A stretch of DNA of 64,000 bases from a virus, in IMG/VR virus record IMGVR_UViG_3300027970_000006, one strand, 5' to 3'. Below the pieces are notes generated by a model that was given only the letters and a program-made list of their open reading frames with translations, searched no databases and was not told where the DNA came from. Positions within the stretch are counted from its first letter, which is position 1. Each line of letters starts with the position of its first letter. Below, in pieces: positions 13,423-50,570 of this stretch. Position numbers and translations under genes: made by a program.

Positions 13423-13475
13423 GATTTAATTTTCTTAATAAATACTTTGATTTGTTGTATTTATTAATAAAAGAA

Positions 13476-15842
13476 ATGGCATATCAAAATATAAATCAAT
13501 ATAATTATCAGAAATTAAAAATGCAAGTCATTTATGACGGGCAAGATATGTCGTTGGCATCTGATGAGGTTGATTTTAATCAAGAAGTTGTGTTTTCACC
13601 ATACTTAATTGGTGTTGATGATGGTGAAAAATTACCAATATCTCTTAATCTTAATAGTCCTTTAACTACCCAAAATCTTAATTTAATCTATGGAAACTAT
13701 GACATCAATAACGTTATTGTTTCTGAAAATTTTTACCAACCAAAAGATTTAAATTTAAATTGTTTTAGTTCTAACACAACTTGTGATATTGGTTTAACAG
13801 GTATTGACAATGGATTGGTTACCAAAATTAAAGGGGACTCTTTAGTTTTTACTAATGGTTTATTTACAGACGCAGAAAAATTTGACAGATTATATTATGA
13901 CAGAAGAATGAAGTTCATTCAAACAACAACAAATGTTCCGTCTAACAATAAGTTTTCAGGAATACCTGAATACACAACATATCAAATGGTCTCAAAAGTT
14001 AGTCCAATTTTTGGAAGGTATGTTGAACTTTATGGTGGTTTTTATCAAGGGTTTTATAAGTTATTTGGTTATGACTATGATATTCTTCCTGAAAGAATGC
14101 ACAAAGGATGGTCTGTTGAATTATTATTAAAACCAAGATTTGGTGATGAATATTCTCCACCGCCAGGATATACAACCTTAAATCAAATATACCCCAACAA
14201 TAAAAATACTTTCTTTTATATGGGGACAAGGGCCGAAAATAAATTCTATCATTACGCCGATGGTAAAGCAAAATGTGATCCTGATTATGTTAGGGTTACG
14301 TCTGGTTTAACAAAAGAAGAAACTTGTGCTTGTTGTGATTATTCGGTTAATAATAGTAGATGTATATATGTGTATCCACCAAGACCTATTGGTGGTGTTT
14401 ATGATCCACATCTAAACTACGGATGTAATTTATGTAAAGGTGACAATGAACAAAAACTCACTTGTGGTTGTGGTTGTGATCAAGAACCTTGTGAAACTTG
14501 TGGGTGGATGTGTTTTCAACATAATTGCTCAACAATTAATGTCCCAACCCCAACCCCGACTCCAACACCAACAACAACTCCCCCTTGTGATACCTATCCT
14601 TCGGTGATTGCGTGTAGTCCAACGGTTCCATGTTGCACGTCTTGTCCTTCATGTGGATGTGATACTTGTGGATGCCCTCCATCATATCCATCAACAATTT
14701 TTTCATCAGTAGAAGATACTTGTGAAAAAGATCCAAAATTTGATGCGTTATCCAATAATATTTCATTTAGATTATGTGGTGAACCACAAAACCCCGGAAT
14801 TGGTATTAGAGCAATTAAAATTACGGGAGATTGCGTAACAACAGGTTCTTGTGTGACAGGTCAAACATATGTGACAGGATATACGATAGTTGACATTTGC
14901 ACCCCACCAATTTACCCGTATTGTTTAGAAGTGAACCCATCTTGGTTAGGTATTGAGCATTGGTTTTTACTTAATGTTGTTTGGGAACGATATACTTATT
15001 TAGATTATTGTGATTTAAGATGGTTTGGTGGATTAGACGATATAACAAGAGTAGAATTACTTCAAAGTTTGGCAAACAACACGGTATCGTTAATCGCTCC
15101 TCCATACACAAACGGATATGAAGTCCCTGGCCAAGTTGAGATTGTTCAATTAAATCAAAGATGGTTAGACGACACCAAGTTTAGAATGGGTAGATTAAAG
15201 ATCTATATTAATGGTAGAATATTTTATACCATAGAAGATTTTGAAGAAGTAATACCAAGAGGGTTAGACACAGATAAAGAAAAACAAGTTGGGGTTCCTT
15301 TTAATATGTCTTGGGGTGGTGGAACTCAAGGTCTTCACGAAAACTTAACCCTTAATTTTTGTAAAATTTGGAGTTATTCTGTAGGAAATGTAACCACAGA
15401 TATAGTTTATAATGATTGTGATAATAATCCAATAACATTATCAGGTCTTACAAATGTGTCTGGAAGTATTATTGTTGATAAAAACTCAACACCATATTTT
15501 ACAATTTCAGATATAAATAATGTTTTAAGTTTTACGGGAGATTATTCGTTAAAAGCGAATGACTATAATCAAGACCCAGAATGTTTCCCAAATAATATTT
15601 TAAGTGCCACGACATTAAATAAATTAAAGACACACATTTTATTAGAAGAAAACTTTGCAGGAACTTTTGATGGGGCAATTTCTCAATTTAGATTTTACAC
15701 CGAACCATTGTCTTCTCCTGAAGTAAAACATAATTTCAAATTATTAAGAGATACTTTTTATATGTTTGATCCCGATTGTCCAAATTGTGATCTTGCCGCT
15801 TGTCTCCCTAATGATTTTACTTATACAATAATTAACACATAG
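13476..15842 (+). CDS. Putative structural protein with LamG/concanavalin-like fold, Cys-rich and Pro-Thr inserts (likely start MAYQN)
   Basis: GWSVELLLKP, LKIYINGR, FDGAISQFRFYTEPL LamG-like signatures; Cys cluster; PTPTPTPT. Confidence 0.55.
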   Translation: MAYQNINQYNYQKLKMQVIYDGQDMSLASDEVDFNQEVVFSPYLIGVDDGEKLPISLNLNSPLTTQNLNLIYGNYDINNVIVSENFYQPKDLNLNCFSSNTTCDIGLTGIDNGLVTKIKGDSLVFTNGLFTDAEKFDRLYYDRRMKFIQTTTNVPSNNKFSGIPEYTTYQMVSKVSPIFGRYVELYGGFYQGFYKLFGYDYDILPERMHKGWSVELLLKPRFGDEYSPPPGYTTLNQIYPNNKNTFFYMGTRAENKFYHYADGKAKCDPDYVRVTSGLTKEETCACCDYSVNNSRCIYVYPPRPIGGVYDPHLNYGCNLCKGDNEQKLTCGCGCDQEPCETCGWMCFQHNCSTINVPTPTPTPTPTTTPPCDTYPSVIACSPTVPCCTSCPSCGCDTCGCPPSYPSTIFSSVEDTCEKDPKFDALSNNISFRLCGEPQNPGIGIRAIKITGDCVTTGSCVTGQTYVTGYTIVDICTPPIYPYCLEVNPSWLGIEHWFLLNVVWERYTYLDYCDLRWFGGLDDITRVELLQSLANNTVSLIAPPYTNGYEVPGQVEIVQLNQRWLDDTKFRMGRLKIYINGRIFYTIEDFEEVIPRGLDTDKEKQVGVPFNMSWGGGTQGLHENLTLNFCKIWSYSVGNVTTDIVYNDCDNNPITLSGLTNVSGSIIVDKNSTPYFTISDINNVLSFTGDYSLKANDYNQDPECFPNNILSATTLNKLKTHILLEENFAGTFDGAISQFRFYTEPLSSPEVKHNFKLLRDTFYMFDPDCPNCDLAACLPNDFTYTIINT

Positions 15843-17351
15843 ATGAGTCAGAATATATTAATTAATAGTGTTTTTTATGATGGCGAATTGGCCGAAGTTT
15901 TATTCAAACCAGACAATGACGATGTTGTTTTAAATTTTGACCAAATAACATTACCATTTTTATTTGAGCCTTATTTATTATTTCCGCCAAGAGAGATTTA
16001 TGGGACATATACGATTAAACCTGTTTCATCAAGTTGTCCTTATTTTTTAAACGTAGTTAGACCAACCCCAACTCCGACGCCAACACCAAGTCCTACAAGA
16101 ACTCCGACACCAACACCTACAACAACAAATACACCAACACCTACATTAGACCCGTGTAAACTACCAAGTCCAACGCCAACATCTACTTTAACACCAACAC
16201 CGACACCAACAATTAGTGTGACTCCGACACCAACACCGACTTGGAATCCATGTATTACTCCATTCCCACAACTTATGGTAAATATTTTGTTGGAGATAAT
16301 TCCAGGATCTGTAAAATTAAAAGCGACGGTATCATATAATCAAGGTTTACCAAATGACACATATATTTGTTTTGATGCAATATTAACAACAAAAACAAAT
16401 GAAATAATTGTTGTTCCAAAACGATTTTTAATTAATTCTGGAACAATGATGGGCGTATTTGAAACAAAATTAGATTTAGATTTTGATTCAATAAAAGATG
16501 TTGTGTTTATTGAAAATACTCAAATTGAGGGTCATGATATTACACCAAATTTTATACAAGAAATAAAAAAACATTTACCACCAACTAATACACCAACACC
16601 GACAAATACCCCAACTAACACACCGACAAATACCCCAACTAATACTCCAACTCCAACACCAACAAATACCCCAACACCAACAAATACCCCAACACCTACA
16701 ATTACACCAAGTGTTGGGTCATCACCAACACCAACTCCAACTAATACTGCAACTCCTACGGTAACTCCTACAAATACATTAACGGCAACTCCTACGGTAA
16801 CTCCTACAATTACACCCACAACCACTGAAACACCAACTCCTACACCAACTAATACATTAACTGCAACACCTACAAACACACCAACACCTACTACCACTGA
16901 AACTCCTACACCGACACCTACAACCACTGAAACTCCTACACCGACACCTACGTCAACTAACACTCCTACTCCTACGTCAACTAACACTCCTACTCCTACT
17001 CCAACATCAACACCAACGACTATTCCAAAAATTTATTTTGGAAAATCAGTAAACGCAAACTTTAATTCAGGAGACGAGTTGTTGTTGTCGACAATTGATA
17101 CTTCGCAAACAACTAATTTATATTTGGAAATTCCATCAGGTCCGGGTTATTTTTATATTTTAATTCCATCCGCAAGTAATCAACCATCAATGTTTAAAAA
17201 TAGTGATTCGGGTTGTAATGGTTTTGTTATTCCGATAACAACAAAACCTGATGTAAATATAATTGACAATTTTGGGAACTATACTATTTATTCAGTATAT
17301 AGATCATATATATCAACCTTTGCTAAAGTTGATGTGTGGGTATGTGAATAA
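15843..17351 (+). CDS. Pro/Thr-rich mucin-like putative virion protein
   Basis: Two long PT/PTNT tracts separating small globular domains. Confidence 0.7.
16062..16240 (+). repeat. Pro-Thr low-complexity coding repeat
   Basis: (CCN ACN)n tract. Confidence 0.85.
16578..17020 (+). repeat. Pro-Thr(-Asn-Thr) coding repeat, about 145 codons
   Basis: PTNTPTPT and PTTTETPT units. Confidence 0.9.
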
Positions 17352-17377: not shown

Positions 17378-18163
17378 ATGGCCGATTTTAGTAAAATCGG
17401 TGGGGTGGGGATTATGGGCTTCATCTCCCCGATGGACACATTAGACACTTATGCAGTTATTGATCCTTTATATGGTATTGATGGATTACGTAATGTTGAC
17501 GAAGAATCGGATTTAAATTTAATACCATACGACAGGAGAAGACCTGGTATGATTGTCGGAACTGATGGAGGTTCTAAATTTTTCAAACTTAAAAACATAT
17601 TTTGGTCTTTTGAATTAACAGATTGGGAAGAAATTTTTTTTTTAAGTTCCACCCAATTAGATGTTCTTAGAAATTTACCCAATAATTTAGTAGTCCCTGG
17701 TGTTAATTCATCAACATTTATTGATCGTGAATTAATTTCAGGATCTATCAATAGTGTAAATAAAGAATTCCAACTTCGGTTTACACCTGAATTAAATTCA
17801 GAACACATTTATTATAATGGACTCTTACAAGATAAAGGATCGGATCTTGATTATAGTATAAGTGGAAAAACAATCACATTTAATAATCCTCCAAAAATTG
17901 GAAGTAAATTACTTTGTTCGTATAGAACTTATAGTGAAATTAATTTTATTGATCACGAATATCCTATTGGTAAAATAAATGGGGTTAATCGTATTTTTGA
18001 ACTTAGTATTAAACCAAAAACAGGAAGTGAACACATCTATTTGAATGGTCTTTTGCAAGACTTTGGTGAAAATAATGATTACACAATAAATGGAAAAACC
18101 ATAACATTTAGTATTTCACCACCTTCTTGGAGTAAAATAACCTGTTCATATAGATTTAATTAA
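17378..18163 (+). CDS. Putative fibre adaptor: N-terminal domain plus two tandem beta domains
   Basis: Two copies of G-x-I-N-x-x-N-x-x-F-x-L...SEHIY-x-NGLLQ...DY-x-I-x-G-K-x-ITF-x3-P. Confidence 0.6.
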   Translation: MADFSKIGGVGIMGFISPMDTLDTYAVIDPLYGIDGLRNVDEESDLNLIPYDRRRPGMIVGTDGGSKFFKLKNIFWSFELTDWEEIFFLSSTQLDVLRNLPNNLVVPGVNSSTFIDRELISGSINSVNKEFQLRFTPELNSEHIYYNGLLQDKGSDLDYSISGKTITFNNPPKIGSKLLCSYRTYSEINFIDHEYPIGKINGVNRIFELSIKPKTGSEHIYLNGLLQDFGENNDYTINGKTITFSISPPSWSKITCSYRFN

Positions 18164-18229
18164 AATAAAATTAACATAAAAACATTACAACTTAAAAGAT
18201 AAACATATTTATAATAAGAAAGAAAAAAA

Positions 18230-18466
18230 ATGATGGAACAAGAAGAAAAATACTCAACGTCAGATTTATATTTAGGGGCGTATTTAAAATTAAAAGGATT
18301 TAAGATGTCTGTTGAAAAACAAAGAAATAAAGCTGTTTTTATGTTTGATAAGACGGAAGAAATACAACAAGAAGTTAATAATTACTTAAATGAAAGTGGT
18401 TCATGTGGACCCCTTTTATATACAAATTCAATTAAGAATTTAAAAAATTTATTATATAATTTGTAA
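18230..18466 (+). CDS. Small DUF5659-like protein
   Basis: YSTSDLYLGAYLKLKGF...VFMF pattern recalled for DUF5659; own TATTTATA motif at 18206. Confidence 0.6.
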   Translation: MMEQEEKYSTSDLYLGAYLKLKGFKMSVEKQRNKAVFMFDKTEEIQQEVNNYLNESGSCGPLLYTNSIKNLKNLLYNL

Positions 18467-18494
18467 AAAGTTTGTCTTTTTCAAATTTACCAAA

Positions 18495-18698
18495 TATTTA
18501 TATGTAAATATCGTCGTGTTATGCGGCAATTATTAATATCTCTTATTTATCTCCTTATTTAAATTAATCTATTATTACGTGGGTGTTTTTATCCTTAAAA
18601 CCACCCTGTTACTATTTGTATGCGTAATCCAACTTGCCTCAAGAGTTGAGAACAAGGTGTAAAGATCACTTTTTAATAAATAAAAAAATAATTTTTTT
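18495..18698 (+). ncRNA. Candidate structured 5' leader / cis-regulatory RNA
   Basis: About 200 nt between TATTTATA (18495) and ATG 18699 with several stems (see findings). Confidence 0.4.
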
Positions 18699-21530
18699 AT
18701 GGCTACTACTAAAATAGTTTTAGACTTACAATCGGACTTGGTATTATCAAGTCCATCAATCACAACCCCAATTGGTATCGTTGCTGGTGACATCGCTTAT
18801 GGTTCATCAAACGTTAATGCTGAGTTAGGAACGTTGTCTTCAAACATCGCTCAAGAAGTTGTTGATCGTGCTACTGCGGTTACTTCTGAAGCAACAGCAA
18901 GAGTTTCAGGTGATAATTCAGTTGCATCTAATTTATCTTCTGAAGTTGTTAACAGAACAAACGCGGTTTCTTCTGAAGCTTCTACAAGATTGGCTGCTGA
19001 CAATTCATTGGCTACTTTAATCTCTGTTGAAATTTCAACTGAGCACGCTCATCACTCAACTGCCGAAGCATCAATCGATTCAAGAATTTCAACTGAAGAA
19101 GACGCTAGATTAAACAAAGATAACTCTTTGGCTACGTCAATTTCAAATGAAGTATCTGACAGAACTGCTGCCGTTTCTTCTGAAGTTGTTGCAAGAACCG
19201 CTGCTGATAATTCATTGGCTTTAGATTTAGCTTCTGAAATCACTAACAGAATTTCTGATGTTAACGCTGAAGAAACAAGAGCTATGGCTGCTGAGTTATC
19301 ATTGAAAACTGATTTGACAGCTGAAGGTTCAAGAGCAATGTCTTCAGAGGTTTCTATCGCTAACGATTTAGCCGCTGAAACTACTGCAAGAATTGCTGAC
19401 GTTGATGCTGAAGAATCAAGAGCTATCGCCGCTGAAGGTTCATTAGCTGCTGATTTAGCTTCTGAAGAATCTGCTCGTATGGCAGCTGACGCTTCATTAA
19501 ACACCAAAATTGAATTCGTTATTTCGAATACTGATGCGGCTGCATTAGATTCATTAACAGAAATCGTTGGTGCGTTCCAATCGGCTGATGGTGACATCAA
19601 CAACGCTATCACTACATTAGCAACAAATTCATCAATTGCAGTATCAACTGAAACTTCAAGAGCAACTGCTGCCGAAGGTTCTATCGCTGCTGATTTATCT
19701 TCTGAAATCGTAAACAGAGGTTTAGATGTTGATGCTGAAGAAGCAAGAGCACAATCTGTTGAGGCAGACTTATCTGAAGAAATTTCTTTAGAAGTTGCTA
19801 ATAGATTAGCCGAGGTTTCAACTGAAAAAGCTAGAGCAATGGCTGCGGAAGGATCTATTGCAACTGACTTGGTAACTGAAACAACTAACAGAACAAATGC
19901 TGATGCTTCATTGGCTACTTTGATCTCAACTGAAATTTCTACAGAACACGCTCACCACGTATCTGCTGAGAATTCATTAACAACAAGAGTTTCATCTGAA
20001 GAGTCAAGAGCTACTGCAGCTGAAGGATCATTAGATACTAAAGTTTCTGTTGAAACTTCAAGAGCTACCGCTGCTGAAGCGTCTATCGCATCTAACTTGT
20101 CTACTGAAATCGTTAACAGAACTGCTGATGTTGATGCTGAAGAATCAAGAGCTATGGCCGCTGAGTTAGTATTAACTAACAATTTATCAACTGAAGTATC
20201 TAACAGAATAGCTGACGTTGATGCTGAAGAATCAAGAGCTATGGCTGCTGAGTTAGTATTAACTAACAATTTATCAACTGAAATCGTTAACAGAATTGCT
20301 GACGTTGATGCTGAAGAATCAAGAGCTAAGTCTGCTGAGTTAGTATTGACTAACGCAATCAATGCTGAAGAAACTGCTCGTGAAAATGCTGATAACGCAC
20401 TATCTCAAGAAATCTCTGAGTGTTGCTCAATCCACACATCTGTTGATGTTGTTTTATCAGGTGAAATCATTAGAGGATTTGGTTCAATCGAAACTACGGT
20501 TTCTACTAAAGAATCTATGGCTATCGTAAGAGAAGATAGTATTGATTCTAAATTGTCTTCTGCAATTTCTTCTGAAGCATCTTCAAGAGTATCTAAAGAT
20601 GGTTCATTAGAGTCTGTAATTTCAGAAGCTAAAACTTCTATCAACAACTCAATTTCTTCTGAAGCTTCTTCAAGAGTATCTGGTGATCTTTCATTAGAAA
20701 ACGCAATTGCAAGAGAAGAAGGAAGAATTGACGCAATCCTTGATGGTTCAACAGTTGATTTAGATCAATTTGCTGAAATCGTTTCTTTTGTTAATGGAAT
20801 TGACTTAGAAAATGATAACGCATTGTTAGCTGCTGTAACTTCAATCGGTACTGCAATTGGTAATGAAGAGTCTTCAAGAGTATCTAAAGATAATTCATTA
20901 GAATCTGTAATCGCAACAAACAGAACTGACGCTAACACAGCAATGTCTACTGAAGTTTCTAACAGAGTTTCTGCGGATAATTCATTGTTTGTTCAATTGA
21001 ATGACAAAATCAACAACGAAATCTCTGATAGAACTGCTGACGTTGATGCTGAACAAGCAAGAGCTGAAGGTGCTGAAGGGATGTTGAATACGAAAATCAA
21101 CACTGAAATCTCTAACCGAGTAGATGCTGACTCTTCATTAGCTACATTGATTAACAATGAAGTAACAAGAGCTCAAGGTGCTGAAGGTTCATTAGAGGCT
21201 GCATTGTCTTCTGAAGTTGCTAACTTGTTATCAAATACAGACTTAACTGCAATTGATTCATTCTCTGAAGTAGTAACTGAATTAGACGCTGTTAAAGGTA
21301 TAATCAACAACACTTACTTCAAGAAAGTAGCAGTTTCTGGTTTAGTTAATGGAACTAACAAAAACTTCACCCTTGCATCTGAAGTAAGATCTAATTCTGA
21401 AACAATCTACTACAACGGATTGTTACAAGAAGAAGGTGTTGACTACACAATCTCAGGTGGTACTAACATCCAGTTTACTTATACTCCTAAAATGGGTGGT
21501 AAAGTAACTGCTTACGGTGTTTACGCTTAA
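18699..21530 (+). CDS. Long Ala/Ser/Glu-rich coiled-coil fibre protein
   Basis: Repeating E-x-x-R-A-x-A-A-E/D units, three LDSL/LDQF/IDSF-x-E-I/V neck motifs, C-terminal beta domain shared with 17378..18163. Confidence 0.75.
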   Translation: MATTKIVLDLQSDLVLSSPSITTPIGIVAGDIAYGSSNVNAELGTLSSNIAQEVVDRATAVTSEATARVSGDNSVASNLSSEVVNRTNAVSSEASTRLAADNSLATLISVEISTEHAHHSTAEASIDSRISTEEDARLNKDNSLATSISNEVSDRTAAVSSEVVARTAADNSLALDLASEITNRISDVNAEETRAMAAELSLKTDLTAEGSRAMSSEVSIANDLAAETTARIADVDAEESRAIAAEGSLAADLASEESARMAADASLNTKIEFVISNTDAAALDSLTEIVGAFQSADGDINNAITTLATNSSIAVSTETSRATAAEGSIAADLSSEIVNRGLDVDAEEARAQSVEADLSEEISLEVANRLAEVSTEKARAMAAEGSIATDLVTETTNRTNADASLATLISTEISTEHAHHVSAENSLTTRVSSEESRATAAEGSLDTKVSVETSRATAAEASIASNLSTEIVNRTADVDAEESRAMAAELVLTNNLSTEVSNRIADVDAEESRAMAAELVLTNNLSTEIVNRIADVDAEESRAKSAELVLTNAINAEETARENADNALSQEISECCSIHTSVDVVLSGEIIRGFGSIETTVSTKESMAIVREDSIDSKLSSAISSEASSRVSKDGSLESVISEAKTSINNSISSEASSRVSGDLSLENAIAREEGRIDAILDGSTVDLDQFAEIVSFVNGIDLENDNALLAAVTSIGTAIGNEESSRVSKDNSLESVIATNRTDANTAMSTEVSNRVSADNSLFVQLNDKINNEISDRTADVDAEQARAEGAEGMLNTKINTEISNRVDADSSLATLINNEVTRAQGAEGSLEAALSSEVANLLSNTDLTAIDSFSEVVTELDAVKGIINNTYFKKVAVSGLVNGTNKNFTLASEVRSNSETIYYNGLLQEEGVDYTISGGTNIQFTYTPKMGGKVTAYGVYA
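20100..20355 (+). repeat. Three near-identical 87-bp tandem units (29 aa)
   Basis: GTTGATGCTGAAGAATCAAGAGCT at 20130, 20217 and 20304. Confidence 0.9.
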
Positions 21531-21551
21531 TCTTTGGTTTTAACCAAAAAG

Positions 21552-21580
21552 AAAAGGGGTTCTTCGGAACCCCTTTTTTT
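21552..21580. terminator. Bidirectional Rho-independent terminator with cUUCGg loop
   Basis: AAAAGGGGTTC-TTCG-GAACCCCTTTTTTT between convergent genes. Confidence 0.9.
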
Positions 21581-21597
21581 ATATATAATAAATTATA

Positions 21598-22800
21598 TTA
21601 AAGATTATCGTATCTATTTGTGTTTGGATTATAAACCAAATCTTTATTTCCACCATTAAAAAGATTATAAATCAATTTGTCATAAGTTTCAATAAGTTCT
21701 TGATTATCTGCGTGATACCTTTGTAAAACCAAATCATTTTTTTTGTGATATTCCGTAATATTTTTATCGTGTTCGGTTAAAATATAATTCAACATTTTGG
21801 CACCTTCTTTTGTGTCACTATTTTCATAATAATAACCAAGATCTTTACAAAGTGGTGCGTTATGTAAAACAGGATACCCCAAATAAGCAGCATCCAAATA
21901 CAAATAATTTAAAGGGTTTAATATTTGGTGACAAATTAAAACGTCAAAATATTGGGTTAAAACAAATGATGTTTGATATCTTGATTCTGCGGTGATTTTT
22001 TTATCTTCATACAGATCAAAAGTTTTGATTATGGATAAAAACTCATAATTTTCTTTAAGTTTTTCGCCATTTGTAATCATAAGTTTATCAATTTTATTTT
22101 TTCCTGTTTCAGTCCTATAAGATTCTTCAGCAATCATTGTTGGGATTATAGAATATTTAACAACATTGATATTTGGTTCCATAATTCCTAGTACCTTTTT
22201 TTCTTTGTCGGGGTTATATTTATAACCTTTTTTATAACGACCATCTTTAAAACCACTTTCAATTCCAATCACCGCTTCAAGTAAGAATTTATTATGCCAA
22301 ATGAAAGGAACAATGAATGAATTTGTTCTATATAGTGTTGAGAAAAATCCGTTATTTGTATCGTGTTGTTGTGGAATATACCATAGTTCATCAAATGTCG
22401 TTTCATATTCAAAATATCTTTTTTTGTTTTCTTTAAACAAAACATTTTCCATGTGAATTACATAATTGTTTCCGCATTTGTAACCGATAAATCTTTTATT
22501 TTTATCTTCTTTAAACTTCTTAATATCTTCTTCGTAAACTTGGGCTCCCATCATTACAATAAGATCCATTTCCATAAACTTATCTTTAAAGTTATAGATA
22601 TTGATATCTTTAAGATATGAAGGTCTTTTTTCAGAAAAATCTACATCAAATGTGTTTAATATAAAAACTTCATAATTGTTTTTGGATTGTTTTAATAAAT
22701 GAACGAACATTAGAACATTTTGTTTCATTCCGTTTGTCCATATTGATTCTGTGTTTGATTGTAAACCTAATGTAATTCCAATTTTTAAATTTTTCATCAC
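21598..22800 (-). CDS. DUF2827-like protein (probable GT-B fold glycosyltransferase)
   Basis: KIGIT...SIWTNGMKQN, CGNNY, PFIW, MEPNINVVK, HQILNPLNYLYLD, YPVLHN, GYYY motifs recalled for DUF2827. Confidence 0.7.
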   Translation of the reverse strand: MMKNLKIGITLGLQSNTESIWTNGMKQNVLMFVHLLKQSKNNYEVFILNTFDVDFSEKRPSYLKDINIYNFKDKFMEMDLIVMMGAQVYEEDIKKFKEDKNKRFIGYKCGNNYVIHMENVLFKENKKRYFEYETTFDELWYIPQQHDTNNGFFSTLYRTNSFIVPFIWHNKFLLEAVIGIESGFKDGRYKKGYKYNPDKEKKVLGIMEPNINVVKYSIIPTMIAEESYRTETGKNKIDKLMITNGEKLKENYEFLSIIKTFDLYEDKKITAESRYQTSFVLTQYFDVLICHQILNPLNYLYLDAAYLGYPVLHNAPLCKDLGYYYENSDTKEGAKMLNYILTEHDKNITEYHKKNDLVLQRYHADNQELIETYDKLIYNLFNGGNKDLVYNPNTNRYDNL

Positions 22801-23351
22801 TGTTGTTTTGTTTGGTTTATAAATTGTTTTATTATTTCGTCTTTTTGTTCTTGAGTTTCAGAATGAACCCATAACCATAAAAAAGAACCTGACACCAATT
22901 GTAATTCTTTTTTCTTTTCTTCTATTGTCTTTTGTAGTAATATAAAGCCATTTGATTCAAAATCTATTTCAATATTGATTTTTTTTGCAATTTTATAAAG
23001 TGTTAATAAATCATTTTTTTCATATGCAATTTGAGATTCTTCATACCATTTTGATCTTAACGGGTTTTTTGATTTGTCTGGATGACATTCTTTTGCGATA
23101 GCCCTAAAAATTGATTTGATTGTTTTTTGTTCTTTTTCTGAAACCTCAAATGGTTTGTCTTTTTTAATACCACAAGAGTTAGTTTCTCCTGTCACTATTG
23201 GAGATTCATAACCCATTTTTATTGCTTCTTCCATAAATAATGGTTTATGATATGTGGTGAATTCATCAACATATTCTTTTTCTAAATCTAAAAGGTTTAA
23301 CTCTTTTAAATAAAGATTTAATTTCAAGTCGTTTAACTTTTTTTTTGACAT
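22797..23351 (-). CDS. J-domain (DnaJ-like) co-chaperone
   Basis: IKSIFRAIAKECHPDK with intact HPD, followed by ..SQIAYE. Confidence 0.75.
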   Translation of the reverse strand: MSKKKLNDLKLNLYLKELNLLDLEKEYVDEFTTYHKPLFMEEAIKMGYESPIVTGETNSCGIKKDKPFEVSEKEQKTIKSIFRAIAKECHPDKSKNPLRSKWYEESQIAYEKNDLLTLYKIAKKINIEIDFESNGFILLQKTIEEKKKELQLVSGSFLWLWVHSETQEQKDEIIKQFINQTKQQ

Positions 23352-23441
23352 ATCCTATAAATAGATTAAAATGGATTTGAGTTCATATTTATATGTGTTA
23401 TTTAATTTTATTTTAACTAACAGAAATATTTATAATATAAG

Positions 23442-25034
23442 ATGCCAATTTATAACAGATTAACAGATAGATCAAAAGTTTCTGCGATCACATTGAATGA
23501 TATTATTCACGTAGTAGTTACGGGGGATACATCACAAAGTCCGCAAGGATCGTCATATTACGCACCCTTAACGTATTTACAAGCGATTTTAAGTGGATCA
23601 TCAGGTACTAACGGAACATCAGGAACTAACGGAACCAATGGTACTAGTGGATCATCAGGTACTAACGGAACATCAGGAACTAACGGAACTTCAGGAACGA
23701 ATGGTACAAGCGGAACTAATGGATCTTCGGGTACCAATGGTACAAATGGAACTTCAGGGACTAACGGCACTAGTGGTACTAGTGGTATATCAGGGGTAAA
23801 TGGTACTTCAGGTACTGATGGAACAAGCGGAACATCACCGGCAGTTCCGGGATTAAATAATGAAATATTAACTTCAGATGGTTCAGGTGGAATAGTTGCC
23901 GAAAGTAATATGACTTTTGATACTACATTACTAAACATAACTGGCCGTACTGATATCTATGATACAATAGGAACTATTCCTTCATTAAAAATATTTTCAC
24001 AACATAATTTTCCACAACACTCTTCTTTATTGATCGATTCTGAAGGAACACCAACTGGTAATACAAAATTATACGGAGCAGAAATTACTGTTTATGGTGC
24101 TTCAAGTTCAAACACAGGTATTTTAATTAGTGCAGGAGGAGATAATGACGGAAATAATACAGGTATAGACGTATCGAATAATTCCACAGGATATGGAACC
24201 TTTCCATTACAGTATGGAATAAAAGGTCTTGTTTCGGGATCTATTACCAATGGTTTTAGTAGAAAATATGGTTCTAACTTTGAAGTTATAAATCAATCCC
24301 AACGTAATATAGGTTACTCTGTCACGGTTTCAGATGCAACTATTTTTAACATAGGTTACGAAGCCTTTATTAATGGGACAACAGGAGATAGTATTGGTAT
24401 GCAAGTGCTTAACACTAACGCCGACACGAATGGTGGTGATTCTCAAACAGGCGCTTTGATTAATGTTTTAGGTGGTGGTAGTTTTCTAAGTACAAATAAA
24501 AAAGGTTTAGATGTTAGTGTTAATGGAAGCGCACAATCAAATATAGGTTTACGATCTTTTGCTAGCGGTGCGTCACAAAATTATGCAATATACACTTCAG
24601 GTGGAAGATTTTCTTTTTATCACGACCCAACTTCAGAATTAACGGGAACAACCAGTGTTGAAGGTTATGGTGATATAGTAACTTTTGGTGGTGTTGGTAG
24701 TTCGTTTAATGCTGGTGATGTTGTTTATTTAGATATTAATGGTGATTGGTTAAAAACCGATGCTACAACCGCAACAACATCAACTAGTATGTTAGCAATT
24801 GCGTTAGGTAGTAGTCCATCGGAAGGTATGTTGGTTAGAGGTTATGCGTATAATAGTAGTTGGGGGTTTACTATCGGTGTTCCTCTATATTTAAGAAGTG
24901 TCCCTGGTTCCATCACAGAAATAGCTCCTGGTGGAACAGGTGAAGTGGTTAGAATTGTTGGGTATGCCACAGGAGATGTTGGGAGTGGAAAAAAAATATA
25001 TTTTAATCCCGACAATACTTGGGTAGAATTGTAA
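23442..25034 (+). CDS. Putative fibre protein with Gly-X-Y (GTS/GTN) repeat and beta-rich C-terminus
   Basis: About 26 G-T/S-S/N triplets; Gly-rich beta-repeat middle; C-terminal AGDVVYL...GVPLYL...VRIVGYA domain typical of phage fibres. Confidence 0.7.
   Translation: MPIYNRLTDRSKVSAITLNDIIHVVVTGDTSQSPQGSSYYAPLTYLQAILSGSSGTNGTSGTNGTNGTSGSSGTNGTSGTNGTSGTNGTSGTNGSSGTNGTNGTSGTNGTSGTSGISGVNGTSGTDGTSGTSPAVPGLNNEILTSDGSGGIVAESNMTFDTTLLNITGRTDIYDTIGTIPSLKIFSQHNFPQHSSLLIDSEGTPTGNTKLYGAEITVYGASSSNTGILISAGGDNDGNNTGIDVSNNSTGYGTFPLQYGIKGLVSGSITNGFSRKYGSNFEVINQSQRNIGYSVTVSDATIFNIGYEAFINGTTGDSIGMQVLNTNADTNGGDSQTGALINVLGGGSFLSTNKKGLDVSVNGSAQSNIGLRSFASGASQNYAIYTSGGRFSFYHDPTSELTGTTSVEGYGDIVTFGGVGSSFNAGDVVYLDINGDWLKTDATTATTSTSMLAIALGSSPSEGMLVRGYAYNSSWGFTIGVPLYLRSVPGSITEIAPGGTGEVVRIVGYATGDVGSGKKIYFNPDNTWVEL
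23594..23835 (+). repeat. 9-bp-period GTS/GTN collagen-like coding repeat
   Basis: GGA/GGT ACT/ACA AAC/TCA/AGT units. Confidence 0.9.
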
Positions 25035-37750: not shown

Positions 37751-38878
37751 TTAAATTACATATATTTGACGAGGCATTGCTCTAAACTTTAATTGTTTGT
37801 TAAGATTTTCAGCCAACAAAGCTTCTCTCTCCATTATTTTTTCAGGACGAAGTCTTGTAAGTCTGCCATCAGCACCAATAAGTTCATCAATCAATTTAGT
37901 TTTTTCATCTTTAGCTTCGGTTGATAAAGATGCGTAATCCATTTGTAAATCACCATCAGGAGCTTTTAAATTACCACTAAACTTACCACGAACTCTTGCC
38001 AACGTTTCTTTACAATATGCGGTAAACCATCTTCTAACCCAAACTTGAGCGGGGTTATTTAGTTTATACCAACTAATTTTATCGTATGGAACATCTGAAG
38101 GTAATAAAATAATATCAGGATTATCTGCCAAACACTTATCTCTATCTCCTTGTGAAGTATCATAATACCAATACCAAACTTGTCCTTTTGATAATTCTGC
38201 GTTTCCAAAATCAAATTTACCCCCCGGTGTGTTTAGAAGGTGTAACGCTTTTTTTCCACCAGGAAGTGCGGTAATATAATAAGTTAAATCTCCTGCGTAT
38301 ATTCTTCTTTGGATGTTAACTTCTTGCATTCTTAATAGGGTGTCAAACGCTGGTGTTAAATAATAACTTCCTGCCATATTACCAATCTGAGCAAGACCTC
38401 CTCCACCTCCAAGACCTGTTCCAATTCCAACACCAGCAAAACCTCCTAAACCAAACATTAGGTTGTTTAACGTTGATGGTGTAAACCATAAAACCTCATT
38501 TATTTCACGACCTGCCGGTATTTCATATATTTGTTGGTTAGGAACTAACTGAATGTAATCTTTTTTAATTTCCCAGTCACCTCCGGCTTGTAGACCAACT
38601 ATTTTAGAATATGCGTATGTGTATCTTGTTTCAAAATCTAAACTTTTTGTGATAAATGCTCTTGATAGAGATTGTGTGTCTAGATTTAAATTATAAAGTG
38701 ATGTCCATTGTGATTCTGTTAACCAATCTTGAACATATTGCGAATATTCGTCAATGGAATATTCCAACAAAGTATCCATCATTTCATCTTCTAATTCAAC
38801 AGATCTAAGAGGTGCCCCCAATAAATGTCTTACCTTTTGATAGAATTGACTTCTTTCTGGTTCATTAATAATTGCCAT
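37751..38878 (-). CDS. Neck/head-completion protein (T4 gp13-like)
   Basis: LGAPLRSVELEDE N-terminus; KETLARVRGKF...PDGDLQMD C-terminus. Confidence 0.65.
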   Translation of the reverse strand: MAIINEPERSQFYQKVRHLLGAPLRSVELEDEMMDTLLEYSIDEYSQYVQDWLTESQWTSLYNLNLDTQSLSRAFITKSLDFETRYTYAYSKIVGLQAGGDWEIKKDYIQLVPNQQIYEIPAGREINEVLWFTPSTLNNLMFGLGGFAGVGIGTGLGGGGGLAQIGNMAGSYYLTPAFDTLLRMQEVNIQRRIYAGDLTYYITALPGGKKALHLLNTPGGKFDFGNAELSKGQVWYWYYDTSQGDRDKCLADNPDIILLPSDVPYDKISWYKLNNPAQVWVRRWFTAYCKETLARVRGKFSGNLKAPDGDLQMDYASLSTEAKDEKTKLIDELIGADGRLTRLRPEKIMEREALLAENLNKQLKFRAMPRQIYVI

Positions 38879-38907
38879 AGGAGTTTTCTTTATAAATATC
38901 TTAAAAT

Positions 38908-41025
38908 TTATTTAAGTACTTGTTGAATATCCATTTTAAATCTGTCGTTCTTTGATAACTTATTAATGATATCTTGAGGAATATTATCCCCCAACTTATT
39001 AACACCGTATTGTGATCCTAATTGATTGAATAAATCTAATATTTCTTTTGTTTTTTCGTCACCAAGCAAAAAAGATGTATATTCTTCATCAGAGATTATT
39101 GGAAATTTTATTGATCCTTTTGTTGGTGCAGTGTCAGAGTCAGTTAATTTCAATACTTTAGTTGAAAATCTAATTTGTTTTGACCCTTTGGTTTTTGGGT
39201 TTACGGTCATTCCCGGTGTTTTTATTATGTTTTTTAATTTTTCTTTATCATAATAAAATAAAACTATTTTAAAATCTTCTTGAGGTATTCCAAGTAACAT
39301 TCCATCAACATCTTTTAACAAATAATCTATTAAGTCTTCTGCAATATTTTTAAAATCTTGATTTGTGCTATTGATAAGATAACTTATTGGGTTTGGGGTA
39401 TTGGACATTAAAATAAGTTCTTTTTTATTTTCATCACTTCCTGTGTAGTTGTTTATATATTCACCTAAAGAATAATTAACACCTTTAAGAACAACAGACT
39501 CATTTAAATCTCTAATAATTTTACAAGAAATTTTTTCAGATTGTGGAGTAATAATATCATATGGGGTATTTAATCCTTCAGATATTGTCCCCCCTAATAA
39601 ACCAGATATTAATCCCTCAAATTCAAACCCTCTAACCCTACTTCTGTAAAATCTACTATAATAGTTATTAAACCTAAATCTTGATCTTTCTGATACTGTA
39701 TTTAAATCCAAAGTCATAAGTCCATTTATGGTTCTATCAAAATTCAAATTACCCCTTTCAATTTCGGCAGTTATAATGTTATTTATTGCAACATTAGCAC
39801 TTTCCATATCTAAAGGAATTAATCTAATTTTTTGTAATTCTTTTTCCATTGTTTGTTTTAAACCCATATTTGTCTCTTCGTTTTCTAATAAAAATTTTAA
39901 ATGAGATTCATTTAATTTCTTTTTTGTTTTTACTTTTGATAGATAAAGTTGATTTACAAAATCCCAATTAACAACATCCCAAAACTTTTGTATGTATTCG
40001 TCTCTTTTGTTTTGGTATTTTAAGTAATAAGCGTGTTCCCAAACATCAAGACCTAAAATTGGATAACCCCCCTTTTTAACAATATTCATTAAAGGGTTAT
40101 CTTGATTTGGTAAAGACATGATTTTTAATTTTCCTTCTTTTGTTAAATATAACCAAGACCACCCTGACCCAAAACGATCTTTGGCGGCTTGATTAAATTT
40201 ATCTTTCATTTTTTTAATGTTCCCAAAATCTTTTTTAATTTTTTCATAAACTTCACCATGAGGTCTTTGTTTTTTGGGAGACAACATTTTCCAAAATAAT
40301 GCGTGATTAAAAGCCCCTCCAGCATTATTTCTAATGACATTATCAAATTTACTAATGGATCTAATGATTTCTTCTAATGTCATATCACCATCTTTATCTT
40401 TAAGTGCTTTGTTTAATTTATCAACATAACCTTTATAATGTTTTTTGTAATGAACATTCATTGTTTTTGTATCAATAAATCTAGATAAAGACGAATATGA
40501 ATATGGAAGTTTTTCCACACCTATTGTTTTCATTTCAACCAACAAACTTTCTTTGATTGATGTTTTTTCTGATATTAGTATTTCTTCGTTTAATATATTA
40601 ATTCTTTTTTCAATTCCTTTACCTTCATACATTTTTGGTTCGTAATCTGGATTTTCTTTTTCAAATATCTTAACAATTCTTCCTGCAAATGCGTTTGCTT
40701 CGTCTTCATTTTGACCACCAATGTTTGGTCCGTGTTCTCTTTTTAGAATATCCATTTGATATTCATGAACCCATTCATGCGCTAATGTTCTCATAATATC
40801 TCGGTTCATTCTATCACCAACCAATACTTTTATAACATTATCACCCCTTCTGCTACCTGTAGACATTTCTCCTTTCTTTTGATTTAAAAAAAATATCTTT
40901 AAATCATTTTTTAATGGAAATTCTCGTTGCAAAAGTTTTACAAACTTATTAATAAAGTCAGAATGTTTTTTAAAATCTTTATTTTCGTAACTGAATGATA
41001 CTTTCATGTTAATTTGGAACCTCAA
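38908..41025 (-). CDS. Fusion: HExxH metallopeptidase-like + Mn/Fe superoxide dismutase + C-terminal domain
   Basis: LAHEWVHE...EDEANA; LPYSY...TMNVHYKKH...NNAGGAFNH...FGSGW...NQD...DVWEHAYY. Confidence 0.85.
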   Translation of the reverse strand: MRFQINMKVSFSYENKDFKKHSDFINKFVKLLQREFPLKNDLKIFFLNQKKGEMSTGSRRGDNVIKVLVGDRMNRDIMRTLAHEWVHEYQMDILKREHGPNIGGQNEDEANAFAGRIVKIFEKENPDYEPKMYEGKGIEKRINILNEEILISEKTSIKESLLVEMKTIGVEKLPYSYSSLSRFIDTKTMNVHYKKHYKGYVDKLNKALKDKDGDMTLEEIIRSISKFDNVIRNNAGGAFNHALFWKMLSPKKQRPHGEVYEKIKKDFGNIKKMKDKFNQAAKDRFGSGWSWLYLTKEGKLKIMSLPNQDNPLMNIVKKGGYPILGLDVWEHAYYLKYQNKRDEYIQKFWDVVNWDFVNQLYLSKVKTKKKLNESHLKFLLENEETNMGLKQTMEKELQKIRLIPLDMESANVAINNIITAEIERGNLNFDRTINGLMTLDLNTVSERSRFRFNNYYSRFYRSRVRGFEFEGLISGLLGGTISEGLNTPYDIITPQSEKISCKIIRDLNESVVLKGVNYSLGEYINNYTGSDENKKELILMSNTPNPISYLINSTNQDFKNIAEDLIDYLLKDVDGMLLGIPQEDFKIVLFYYDKEKLKNIIKTPGMTVNPKTKGSKQIRFSTKVLKLTDSDTAPTKGSIKFPIISDEEYTSFLLGDEKTKEILDLFNQLGSQYGVNKLGDNIPQDIINKLSKNDRFKMDIQQVLK

Positions 41026-44323: not shown

Positions 44324-44383
44324 ACCTATTCTTTTAATAAAAATAATAATAAAAGTAATATTTATCAATAAAAAAGATTTTTT

Positions 44384-46174: not shown

Positions 46175-46182
46175 TATTTATA
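46175..46182 (+). promoter_or_regulatory. Putative late promoter TATTTATA (sheath); representative of about 19 copies
   Basis: Same motif upstream of most structural genes on the coding strand. Confidence 0.6.
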
Positions 46183-46214
46183 GAAAAAATAAATAATTAA
46201 AAGTATTTTACAAT

Positions 46215-49200
46215 ATGGCAACTAACAGTAAGGTTTTTGTTTCGCCCGGTGTGTATACTTCTGAAGTTGACTTAAGCTTTGTAGCACAAAGTGTGGGTGT
46301 AACTACATTAGGTATTGTTGGGGAGACTTTAATAGGTCCAGCTTTTGAACCTATTTTCATTACAAATTTCACAGAATTTGAAACTGTTTTTGGGGCAACT
46401 TCTCCAGAAAAATTCATAAACACTCAAATTCCAAAATACGAAGCTTCGTATATTGCCAAGGCATACCTTCAACAATCTAATCAGTTATTTGTAACTAGAA
46501 TTCTTGGTTTATCAGGATATGACGCAGGCCCATCTTGGTCTGTAACAACTGTCGCTAACGTGAACCCATCAACAATTGGTGTTTGGTGTTTAAGTTCCGT
46601 TACAGATTTTACAACTTGTGAGACTATTTGTGTAACACCAAAAGAATTATCATTTACGGTTCCTTTTACAGCTTGTACAAACTCTCAAACAACAATTGGT
46701 TATACTACTGATTTTCCCGATGAAATTCAAAATATACTATTTGATCAATATGAACAATTTAATGGATCTGTATCTACTTTAGATTCACAAATTAGAAACT
46801 TAATTTTTGATGTAATAACCGATTCTCAACCATTCGTTGCAGAAGATGAATACATTTCTTACTTTGGTTCAATAGACACTAATGACTATAATACTTTAGA
46901 AGGTGCTGGATGGACAGCAGCAACTAACGTATTTAACGTTCCTTCAGTTTCTTTAGATGATACTGACTTAACATCTCCTTTGAATGACTCTTGGTATTAT
47001 GCCCTATTCACAAACACGGGGAATACTAATTATAGTGGTTATTCTTTCTTTACTTATATTTCAGGTTTAACTTCTTATTACCCTAACCCAACGCCAACAC
47101 CACAAGCGTCGGCTTCACCAACACCAACTCCTTCATTTGTTAATCCTTGTATTACACCTTCACCATTTACATCTCCAACACCGACACCGACACCTGTTAA
47201 CATAGATTGTTATTCAGGAACAATTGTTGGTAAAATTTATTACTATACTGGTACATCATATGTGAATTATGATAATGTGGTTGTTGGAACATTAAGGTCA
47301 AGAGGTATTTCAACTTATACAAATGCAACTAACCCAACTTATTCTGTAACAGGAACATCAGACGTAACACTTAATATGGCAGGTCAATACTCAACCGTAT
47401 TAAAAAACCCATACGCAACTTTTGGTGTAAACGTTGTTGATAAATTTGGAACAAATTATTCATTTGAAACTTCATTTACTCAAAACGATCCTGAATATTG
47501 GACTAAGGTATTTGGAGTAACTAACTTCCAAAAACCAAGAATTGAGGTTCCTGTTTTTGCTGAAGAAAATTTCCAATCATTCTTAAACTTCTCATGGAGA
47601 AAAGGATATATTAGAGGTTTAAATCCTAACTTAATTGCTCTTGACTCAGCACAAAGTGGTGATCCTGATTCAATTGGTTGGTATTTAGATAAATGGCAAA
47701 CACCTGTTTCACCTTTTGTTGTTTCAGAATTAAGAGGTAATAAAGTTTACGACCTATTTAGATTCTATACAATTTCTGATGGTGACGCAGCAAACACATT
47801 GGTTAAAATATCAATTATTAATCAATCATATAATAATTTAACGTTTGATGTATTGATTCGTAGTTATTTTGATACAGACGCAAACCCTGTGGTACTTGAG
47901 AAATTTACAAATTGTGGTATGGATCCGGGTCAAAATAATTTTATCGCAAATAAAATTGGTTCTTTAGACGGAGAATACGCACTTAATTCAAGATATGTAA
48001 TGGTTGAAATGAGTGAAGACGCTCCGATTGACACACTTCCTTGTGGATTTAACGGGTTTAATTTTAGAAACTACGCAGGTGCTAATTCACCATTCCCAAT
48101 TATTAAAGGTAAATATGACTTCCCTGGTGAAGTTATTTATAACCCACCATTTGGTTTATCTTCAGGTAACGATAATGCATTAGTAAGTCCGGGAGATAAC
48201 GTAAGAAGAACTTACTTAGGTATTTCTAATTCTTATGGATGGGATCCGGCATTCTTTGAATATATTGGTAAGAGAAACCCGATTAACTCTTGTGATATAG
48301 ATGGTCTTCCATTTAATTATAGATCTGAAGGTTTCCATATGGACGTAAATGCAAGTGGTTTAACAATCGGACCTGAATTCTCAACAAGTGGTGAACCAAG
48401 ATTTGTTTGTGGTAATTCATCATTCCTTACAGAACCAGAATTACCAACAAACGCTTATTACAGATTATTCGCACGTAAATTCACATTCTTAGTTCAAGGT
48501 GGATTTGATGGTTGGGATATCTATAGAGAATGGAGAACAAATACCGACGAATATCAAATTGGTAGAAGAGGTTTCCTTAACGGAGCATGTCCTTCATCAA
48601 GATACCCTACCGCAGTTGGTTGGGGAGCGTTTAAAGAAATTTCTTTGGGTGATGGAACACAAAACTTTGCTAATACCGACTATTATGCGTACTTGTTAGG
48701 TCAACAAACATTCGCAAACCCTGAAGCAACTAACATTAACGTATTTGTTACACCTGGTATTGATTATGTTAATAATAGTAATCTTGTTGAAGACGCAGTT
48801 CAAATGATTGAATTCAACAGAGCCGATTCACTTTATATTTGTACAACCCCTGACTACGACTTATATTTACCAACAACAACTGGTATTGATGGGTTTATCT
48901 ACCCTACAGAAGCGGTTAACAATTTGGATAACACAGGAATTGACTCAAACTATACCGCAACATATTATCCGTGGGTATTGACAAGAGATAGTGTAAATAA
49001 CACTCAAATCTATATTCCACCAACGGCTGAGGTAACAAGAAACTTGGCACTTACAGATAACATCGCGTTCCCGTGGTTCGCAGCGGCAGGTTACACTCGT
49101 GGTATTGTTAATTGTATTAAAGCTCGTAAGAAGTTAACACAAGAAGATAGAGACATTCTTTATGTTGGTAGAATTAATCCAATTGCCACTTTCTCTGATG

Positions 49201-50536: not shown

Positions 50537-50570
50537 GTAAAAATAAAACAAAAAATTAAAAAAAAACAAT

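Follow-up and report, generated by a model that had tools for sequence, protein, structure and literature searches.

The 64,000-nucleotide (nt) stretch of viral DNA analysed here (IMG/VR record IMGVR_UViG_3300027970_000006; hereafter the window, in whose coordinates positions are given) contains, at 17378–23351, a compact locus built around the gene of a 943-amino-acid (aa) fibre protein. A first-pass annotation, made from the letters alone, had described this locus as a self-contained fibre cassette, and the listing of open reading frames (ORFs) confirmed its gene order and coordinates exactly, with plus-strand units convergent with two minus-strand genes. The features are:

17378..18163, plus strand: putative adaptor, 261 aa (ORF, fold, PHROG tail-fibre matches)
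18230..18466, plus strand: DUF5659 protein, 78 aa (Pfam PF18903, E 6e-15)
18467..18698, plus strand: 5' leader of the fibre gene, 232 nt, ORF-free (alignment with 10 relatives)
18699..21530, plus strand: fibre, 943 aa (periodicity, repeats, C-terminal homology to the adaptor)
20103..20354, plus strand: 87-bp (29-residue) rod repeat, recent tandem triplication (Tandem Repeats Finder)
21552..21580, no strand assigned: bidirectional intrinsic terminator (11-pair stem between an A run and a T run)
21598..22800, minus strand: DUF2827 protein, 400-aa ORF, ~399 aa from the likely start (Pfam PF10933, E 7e-98)
22797..23351, minus strand: J-domain protein, 184 aa (sub-threshold Pfam DnaJ match, HPD present)

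At the point of convergence the hairpin GGGGTTC-TTCG-GAACCCC (21552–21580), which lies between an A run and a T run, is common to the fibre gene and the J–DUF2827 operon. IMG/VR holds related contigs of 232–281 kb with a T4 Gp23-type capsid gene, and in nine relatives the position of the hairpin was kept and its stems covaried, in agreement with the strong bidirectional terminator proposed earlier. Within the minus-strand operon, the likely start codon of the DUF2827 gene (ATG at 22797) overlaps the stop codon of the J gene as TGATG, and the J gene is translationally coupled to DUF2827.

The fibre protein consists of an N-terminal peptide (residues 1–33), an alpha-helical rod rich in Ala, Ser and Glu, and a C-terminal beta domain (~872–943), with an overall composition of 15% Ala, 14% Ser, 10% Glu, 3.9% Gly and 0.3% Pro. 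A hydrophobic period of 3.62–3.64 residues (power 6.9) was dominant in every segment and matches the 29-, 18- and 11-residue repeats of the rod (29/8, 18/5 and 11/3), which indicates a non-heptad alpha-helical rod nearly devoid of supercoil and not a heptad coiled coil. Three breaks that have a D-x-F-x-E-I-V-type motif in common (at about residues 276–310, 683–720 and 844–875) interrupt the rod; by simple arithmetic, its ~815 residues minus ~30 for each break give a length of ~110 nm, in keeping with the earlier expectation of more than 100 nm for a continuously helical fibre. Since the 87-bp repeat (2.9 copies, 90% matches) has been triplicated and fibre orthologues range from 647 to 1539 aa, rod length appears to evolve by gain and loss of repeats. 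Fourteen of the 33 N-terminal residues are invariant, while the rods of orthologues drop to 33% identity; a conserved N-terminus on a diverging rod is the usual signature of a docking end. The C-terminal beta domain, reported in the first-pass annotation to occur twice in the 261-aa protein, indeed gave two BLASTP matches to it, with 41% (E 5e-18) and 45% (E 3e-12) identity. The fibre matched phrog_13589 and no Pfam family, including the Fibritin_C foldon, the YadA head, stalk and anchor, and signal-peptide or membrane-anchor families. A PDB sequence search with the adaptor, fibre and DUF2827 proteins gave nothing significant, and Protein Atlas look-ups with the DUF5659 protein and with the fibre returned only unnamed viral clusters.

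Codon usage set the fibre gene apart from the other 44 ORFs of the window. The preference for GCT, ATC, AAC and TTC that had been noticed by eye was borne out by counts of 91/140 (65%) vs 134/597 (22%) for GCT (Fisher p 3e-21) and 37/64 (58%) vs 143/1330 (11%) for ATC (p 2e-18), with 61% vs 29% for AAC and 50% vs 15% for TTC. The bias was uniform along the gene, the non-repeat C-terminal domain included, and favoured C-ending two-fold and T-ending four-fold codons with unchanged G+C content at third codon positions (GC3), a pattern that is a classic mark of translational selection. The preferred-codon index, calculated as the mean share of GCT, ATC, AAC, TTC, TAC, ACT, TCT and GGT, was 0.62 for the fibre, 0.37 for the sheath, 0.32 for the tube and ~0.16 for the adaptor; in relatives it was 0.53–0.66 for the fibre, 0.54–0.58 for the capsid gene (0.54–0.55 in two of them) and 0.17–0.33 for neighbouring genes. 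Moreover, the fibre gene was the most codon-biased gene in nine of nine further loci (clades A and B, see below). Codon usage in the fibre gene is on a par with that in the relatives' major capsid gene; expression of the fibre is therefore predicted to be very high, as the first reading of the locus had suggested, and to reach the level of the capsid protein.

The 261-aa protein comprises an N-terminal anchor domain (residues 1–99), the first 37 residues of which are predicted to be disordered yet are highly conserved, followed by tandem beta domains (~110–186 and 189–261). In an AlphaFold model built on 43 homologues, the beta domains had predicted local distance difference test (pLDDT) values of 80–93. 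Each of them superposed on the XD domain of CBA120 TSP4 (7rfv: Z 8.6, root-mean-square deviation 1.9 Å, 63 residues) and one comparison, with 9efk, reached Z 8.7, Z values of about 8 being only moderately specific; further superpositions were found with the N-terminus of T7 gp17, the tailspike anchors of the Klebsiella phages Kp7 and Kp9, and T4 baseplate proteins. The best 30 VIA-align rows for the beta domain were nearly all phage tail, neck or baseplate proteins. BFVD yielded 166 matches at E ≤ 0.001, including gp10, the K1E endosialidase adaptor and RaK2-type branching receptor-binding proteins, and PHROG tail-fibre families were matched with E values of 1e-6 to 5e-9. As its beta domains superpose on known fibre anchors and adaptors, the name adaptor, already given to the protein in the first-pass annotation, is well founded as a fold-level label, and the predicted model presents the protein as two copies of the fibre-anchor/branching fold of T4 gp10, CBA120 TSP4 and the K1E adaptor. 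Metagenomic homologues (457) occurred in three architectures; some relatives had a one-domain form of 162–164 aa, and in others the protein was split, so that the anchor domain forms part of a different, ~400-aa protein and a 241-aa protein bears both beta domains. Such modularity is typical of fibre systems. A complex prediction with three copies each of adaptor residues 100–261 and fibre residues 1–50 had a score of 0.00, which counts neither for nor against docking.

The same features could describe a neck whisker or collar of the fibritin kind, or else a normal tail fibre of low copy number, with the 261-aa protein as a branching part of the neck or baseplate and a codon bias that does not reflect copy number. 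T4 fibritin is a segmented parallel coiled coil, and in a complete 166-kb phage with a different backbone the same five genes lie between a gp13-like neck gene and the sheath genes, where T4 has wac. Among cultured phages, cyanophage C48C1 has the nearest homologue of the rod; it is annotated as a tail fibre, with gp13/14/15-like genes immediately downstream, and the beta domain matched only tail and baseplate anchor domains. We nevertheless consider this explanation rather unlikely: the codon index of the fibre is far above that of the window's sheath and tube, whose products are present in more than 100 copies, and equals that of the relatives' capsid gene; neither the foldon nor another fibritin family of Pfam matched the fibre; and the gp13-like neck gene of the window (37751–38878) lies 14 kb from the cassette. 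It is very improbable, in our view, that the fibre is not part of the virion at all and accumulates in large amounts during infection, within the cell or on its surface, for example as a scaffold, cytoskeletal element or released decoy. The fibre gene is found among late structural genes behind a late-type motif, its product has no signal-peptide or membrane-anchor family match and ends in the same tail-fibre anchor fold as the adaptor, and rod homologues in cultured phages are annotated as tail fibres; what speaks for such a structure is that the fibre is predicted to be expressed very highly when the adaptor gene shows no comparable bias, together with the existence of a relative that lacks the block, which shows the block to be dispensable.

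The protein encoded next to the terminator on the minus strand matched DUF2827 over profile positions 1–362 with 328.2 bits, compared with a cut-off of 25. Among the best 50 Foldseek matches of its AlphaFold model (predicted template modelling score, pTM, 0.76), nearly all were GT-B glycosyltransferases, the best being GT4-type (6eji, BshA), with TM values of 0.45–0.59, a probability of 1.0 and E values from 3.6e-9 to ~1e-8. The protein is predicted to be a glycosyltransferase of the GT-B fold, in line with its initial designation as a DUF2827-like glycosyltransferase. The J protein matched Pfam DnaJ with 23.4 bits (E 6.6e-5, 40 of 63 profile positions), below the gathering score of 27.8, and its J domain appears to be divergent. 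The J-domain call stands although this match is sub-threshold: the HPD motif occupies residues 90–92, all of 11 orthologues, some as low as 29% in identity, keep H90, P91, D92 and K93, and the N- and C-terminal extensions are conserved. J proteins from clades B and C have the same architecture, with the HPD present. No Hsp70 gene was found in four related genomes, and three of them have a second, canonical DnaJ (80–103 bits; G001:40008–40184, G002:210494–210673 and G003:49903–50091), so that the J protein at the fibre locus seems to be a recruiter of host DnaK dedicated to a particular client.

An alignment-based scan of IMG/VR recovered 64 distinct DUF2827 loci. A J protein was encoded within 1 kb of DUF2827 in 49 of them, and a fibre-like gene was present within 7 kb in 47, of which 27 had it within 150 bp. 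The loci formed three clades:

Clade A (that of the window), DUF2827 identity 55–94%, 44 loci: J within 1 kb in 40; fibre within 150 bp in 14 and within 7 kb in 33
Clade B, DUF2827 identity 39–41%, 11 loci: J convergent after DUF2827 in 9; fibre directly upstream and co-directional in 11
Clade C (tandem DUF2827 paralogues), identity 25–29%, 9 loci: J within 5 kb in 3; fibre-like gene within 7 kb in 3

In clade B the gene order is fibre → DUF2827 ← J, the triad is followed by collagen-like genes, and the adaptor and DUF5659 are absent. Hence the expectation that the genes of the cassette co-occur in other genomes was upheld: the fibre, DUF2827 and J genes are linked in three clades and two gene orders, and the adaptor, DUF5659 and the long leader are linked to them in the clade of the window only. 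The first three thus form a deeply linked triad to which the others were added in one clade, and these linkage data make it likely that the triad is a functional unit. A natural deletion in one relative (L027:8001–8656) has removed DUF5659, the fibre and DUF2827; it cuts the adaptor after its anchor domain and breaks the J gene just after the 'HP' of HPD, and a DNA polymerase gene comes next.

In addition, two loci have Leu-rich, repeat-rich proteins between the fibre and DUF2827 (L020:12973–15376, with two paralogues, and L018:12877–14412). On two GVMAG-labelled contigs (L125 and L128, from binned giant-virus metagenome-assembled genomes, MAGs), up to four DUF2827 domains were present, some in ORFs of 884–1098 aa, and these domains lie next to a fibre-like protein with an S74-type intramolecular chaperone end.

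DUF2827 genes are also found beside fibres in bacteria. Three genomes of Burkholderiales (Paraburkholderia, Polaromonas and Burkholderia dolosa) have trimeric autotransporter adhesins of the YadA type with three DUF2827 paralogues beside them, and on a contig of a Flavobacteriaceae MAG a related Ala/Ser/Asp coiled-coil rod is encoded directly upstream of DUF2827. These observations agree with a recent survey, in which DUF2827 genes adjoin trimeric autotransporter adhesins in Burkholderia, Veillonellales and Pasteurellales (bioRxiv 10.64898/2026.01.22.700529).

Linkage of this kind could be incidental, with DUF2827 and the J protein serving general glycosylation and takeover of the host and acting on other substrates such as PT-rich or collagen-like proteins, DNA or host factors. 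Around the locus are numerous further glycosyltransferase genes and genes for mucin-like or collagen-like proteins, the triad of clade B too has collagen-like genes next to it, DUF2827 lies 3–10 kb from the fibre in some genomes, and the J protein Rki of phage RB43 acts on sigma-32 and not on a structural protein (PMC3486835). Yet the triad has been kept together in three clades despite inversion and re-ordering, unrelated bacteria have DUF2827 beside Ser-rich coiled-coil adhesins without collagen-like or PT-rich neighbours, and a single natural deletion took out the fibre, DUF2827 and the J domain together. We judge a chance neighbourhood to be distinctly unlikely.

Two further elements lie between the adaptor and fibre genes in the clade of the window. 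The 78-aa protein, initially called DUF5659-like, matched PF18903 with 55.2 bits, well above the curated cut-off of 23.6. With 31 of 78 positions invariant in 12 orthologues it is better conserved than the fibre; its gene is always found between those of the adaptor and the fibre in this clade, adjoining the fibre in four genomes (G001–G004), and it is possible that the protein is a chaperone or a regulator of the leader. The DUF5659 family comprises 1154 representative clusters, mostly viral. The leader that follows, which gives the fibre gene a promoter-like motif of its own, carries an invariant ATATTTATATG at 18494–18504, hairpin 1 (18513–18527), hairpin 2 (~18579–18607), a second motif similar to the first (TATTTGTATG, 18613–18622) and hairpin 3 (~18630–18659), and no Shine-Dalgarno sequence precedes the fibre ATG. 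As a single sequence its fold was not significant (z −1.66), though in an alignment of the window with 10 relatives hairpins 1 and 2 covaried: 87% of cells were paired, compared with 70% in shuffles (0 of 500 shuffles as high) and 35–52% when partners were slid, and 10 of 12 pairs had compensatory changes (RNAalifold, pair counts). The structured leader of the first-pass annotation was thereby substantiated. By eye hairpin 3 covaries as well, but it was not counted because MAFFT misaligned the two subgroups. Rfam contains no family for the leader, which is a candidate new cis-regulatory RNA of a highly expressed late gene. It is unusually long, because most other late genes have the motif TATTTAT only 15–35 nt upstream, and the capsid gene of relatives has no comparable leader.

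Exact copies of ATATTTATATG are not enriched overall and number two in the window, 5' of the fibre gene and 5' of a gene for a collagen-like 530-aa protein that adjoins the cassette (23442–25034, plus strand; motif at 23385–23395). The first 75–85 residues of the latter protein are ~80% identical in relatives and the remainder diverges; possibly the adaptor, with its two domains, also takes this protein as a second fibre. The TATTTAT motif was found 15–35 nt 5' of the start codons of structural genes, for most late genes (e.g. 46180–46190, 50540–50550 and 38885–38895), and is a candidate late promoter element comparable to TATAAATA of T4. Shine-Dalgarno sequences were also absent from the structural-gene start codons examined downstream of TATTTAT, and in promoter scans neither sigma-70-type promoters nor the Bacteroidota pattern TTTG-N17-21-TAnnTTTG occurred more frequently than expected by chance.

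On balance, the best explanation of the locus as a whole, and one that we hold to be somewhat probable, is a late-gene module conserved in uncultured jumbo and large myophages with a T4-type capsid, the hosts of which are probably Bacteroidota; the module produces a fibre of ~110 nm in great abundance and would also provide for its chaperoning, glycosylation and docking. The J protein would recruit host DnaK to hold the long nascent fibre chains, and DUF2827 would act in the cytoplasm and O-glycosylate Ser and Thr residues of the rod, an activity also proposed for trimeric autotransporter adhesins. The fibre would trimerise and use its conserved N-terminus to dock on the adaptor's beta domains, and the adaptor's own conserved N-terminal domain would sit in the virion. 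The high predicted expression suggests many copies per particle, which might form a hairy coat as opposed to six tail fibres. Folding by DnaK, glycosylation of the fibre, anchoring by the adaptor and a place in the virion are parts that we infer, and the proposal of a dedicated module, made in the first reading, fared well with respect to the genetic linkage of the triad and less well in that the unit was not uniform across clades.

Several observations weigh against such a module. The adaptor gene has no codon bias, a poor fit with one adaptor per fibre, and a 1:1 stoichiometry is thus doubtful. N-x-S/T sequons are not enriched in the fibre (13 vs 15.4 expected), and any glycosylation of the fibre would therefore be O-linked or novel in kind. 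The window contains at least nine other glycosyltransferase genes as well as other plausible substrates (PT-rich and collagen-like proteins), and DUF2827 lies ~10 kb from the fibre in G003 and ~3 kb in G002. The canonical DnaJ of G001–G003 means that J-domain function as such is not tied to the fibre. Finally, six distant DUF5659 genes that were sampled, mostly on contigs of 1–2 kb, had mixed contexts: one was in a siphophage tail module, one preceded a YadA-stalk-like protein, and the others preceded connector- or replication-like genes.

A bolder version of the module, in which DUF2827 and the J protein are a dedicated glycosylation machine for the Ser-rich coiled-coil fibres of bacteria and phages and the particle bears hundreds of glycosylated hairs of ~110 nm, is speculative and, as we see it, fairly unlikely to hold in full. 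In that version, as the fibre ends in the docking fold of the adaptor, fibres might even chain or branch head-to-tail from few anchors, which would reconcile capsid-level expression of the fibre with low expression of the adaptor. DUF2827 is a family without an assigned function, and its tie to Ser-rich coiled-coil fibres in two unrelated settings gives a specific, testable hypothesis, for which the phage locus offers a small, soluble system. The J protein, being coupled to a glycosyltransferase, would represent a new kind of phage protein that recruits Hsp70 for a specific client. The capsid-level fibre suggests a glycan-decorated hairy surface in widespread aquatic jumbo phages, probably of Bacteroidota, which would bear on adsorption, particle stickiness in water, and grazing or immune evasion.

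The window derives from an uncultured, low-GC (~31% G+C) jumbo myophage with a T4-type capsid. Its genes include those of a tail sheath, tail tube, baseplate hub and gp13-like neck protein, as well as of a family B polymerase and an intein-bearing SNF2 helicase, and at least 10 of its genes belong to glycosyltransferase families, DUF2827 counted in. The closest cultured matches of the Gp23-type gene of relatives were in Flavobacterium phage immuto, Microcystis phage Mel-JY01 and Rhodothermus phage RM378. The hosts of the lineage are probably Bacteroidota, given the fibre ATG without a Shine-Dalgarno sequence and the related locus in the Flavobacteriaceae MAG. Among cultured phage genomes, megablast with the locus and tblastn with DUF2827 and with DUF5659 gave zero matches, and the fibre gave only weak rod-repeat matches to 'tail fibre' genes of a Vibrio phage and cyanophages. 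The sheath protein (46215–49565, plus strand), at 1116 aa, is about twice the usual size, and the 166-kb relative has two adjoining sheath paralogues of 567 and 587 aa (L004:1215–4728). The SNF2-type helicase carries a Hint/LAGLIDADG intein (41462–44368, minus strand), and a 705-aa fusion protein (38908–41025, minus strand) includes a complete Fe/Mn superoxide dismutase. Upstream of the adaptor (13452–17351, plus strand) are two large proteins, one of 796 aa with a Cys-rich region, PT linkers and a LamG-like C-terminal motif, and one of 502 aa, about half of which consists of Pro/Thr repeats; the C-terminal domain of the latter is always encoded directly 5' of the adaptor gene in relatives.

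Among known systems, T4 gp10, the XD domains of CBA120 TSP2/TSP4, the K1E/K1-5 adaptor and the hyperbranched fibres of phiKp24/RaK2 (PMC9700779) have the same small beta fold as the adaptor. As in branching adaptors, the 261-aa protein has two tandem beta folds behind an anchor, a layout that lets one anchor carry two fibres; unlike in these, sequence identity is only 15–20%, the same domain also terminates the 943-aa fibre, and relatives of this phage have one-domain and split forms. With T4 fibritin (gpwac) the fibre shares a segmented alpha-helical build, a phage with a T4-type capsid, a conserved N-terminus suited to docking and, in one relative and the cyanophage homologue, a gene beside gp13-like neck genes; it differs in having a fibre-anchor-type beta domain at its C-terminus and no foldon, a rod twice as long with a period of 3.63 instead of heptads, capsid-level codon usage, and a dedicated (predicted) glycosyltransferase and J protein.

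Glycosylated fibrils are borne by giant viruses. In mycobacteriophages, according to the citation of Freeman et al. 2023 in PMC12619734, phage enzymes modify the C-termini of capsid and tail-tube subunits. These viruses resemble the phage of the window in encoding glycosyltransferases presumed to modify their own surface proteins; unlike in mycobacteriophages, the enzyme family is DUF2827 and the presumed substrate a coiled-coil rod. Rki, the J-domain protein of the T4-related phage RB43, stabilises sigma-32 (PMC3486835); both it and the J protein described here are small, contain a J domain with the HPD and would act through the DnaK of the host. Whereas Rki has no link to a structural gene, the J protein of the window is coupled to a glycosyltransferase and co-inherited with the fibre, and larger relatives have a separate canonical DnaJ besides it. 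The 'hairy' large phage vB_PcaM_CBB (PMC5259590) and phage 7-7-1 with its capsid fibres (PMC12796354), to neither of which a sequence relationship was found, are large myophages with many extra whisker- or hair-like fibres on the tail or capsid, a morphology that is predicted here from expression level. Several traits are shared with the moraphages, a recently named lineage of aquatic jumbo phages with 25 published genomes: the 232–281 kb of the relatives, hosts pointing to Bacteroidota, several glycosyltransferases and DnaJ (PMC12619734).

The trimeric autotransporter adhesin loci of bacteria, like the phage locus, have a long Ser-rich coiled-coil fibre gene beside one or more cytoplasmic DUF2827 proteins with the GT-B fold, the phage and bacterial DUF2827 proteins being only 26–36% identical. 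The bacterial adhesins next to DUF2827 possess YadA-type domains and a signal peptide, whereas the phage fibre, which would fold in the cytoplasm, has no YadA head, stalk or anchor, ESPR or secretion signal, and the phage loci add a J-domain protein that is missing from the bacterial loci. A literature search found no description of the combination of fibre, DUF2827 and J protein in phages, consistent with the earlier impression that it was undescribed. The novelty of the locus is that known themes, namely fibre modules, virion glycosylation and phage J proteins, are newly combined and cross-linked to bacterial adhesins.

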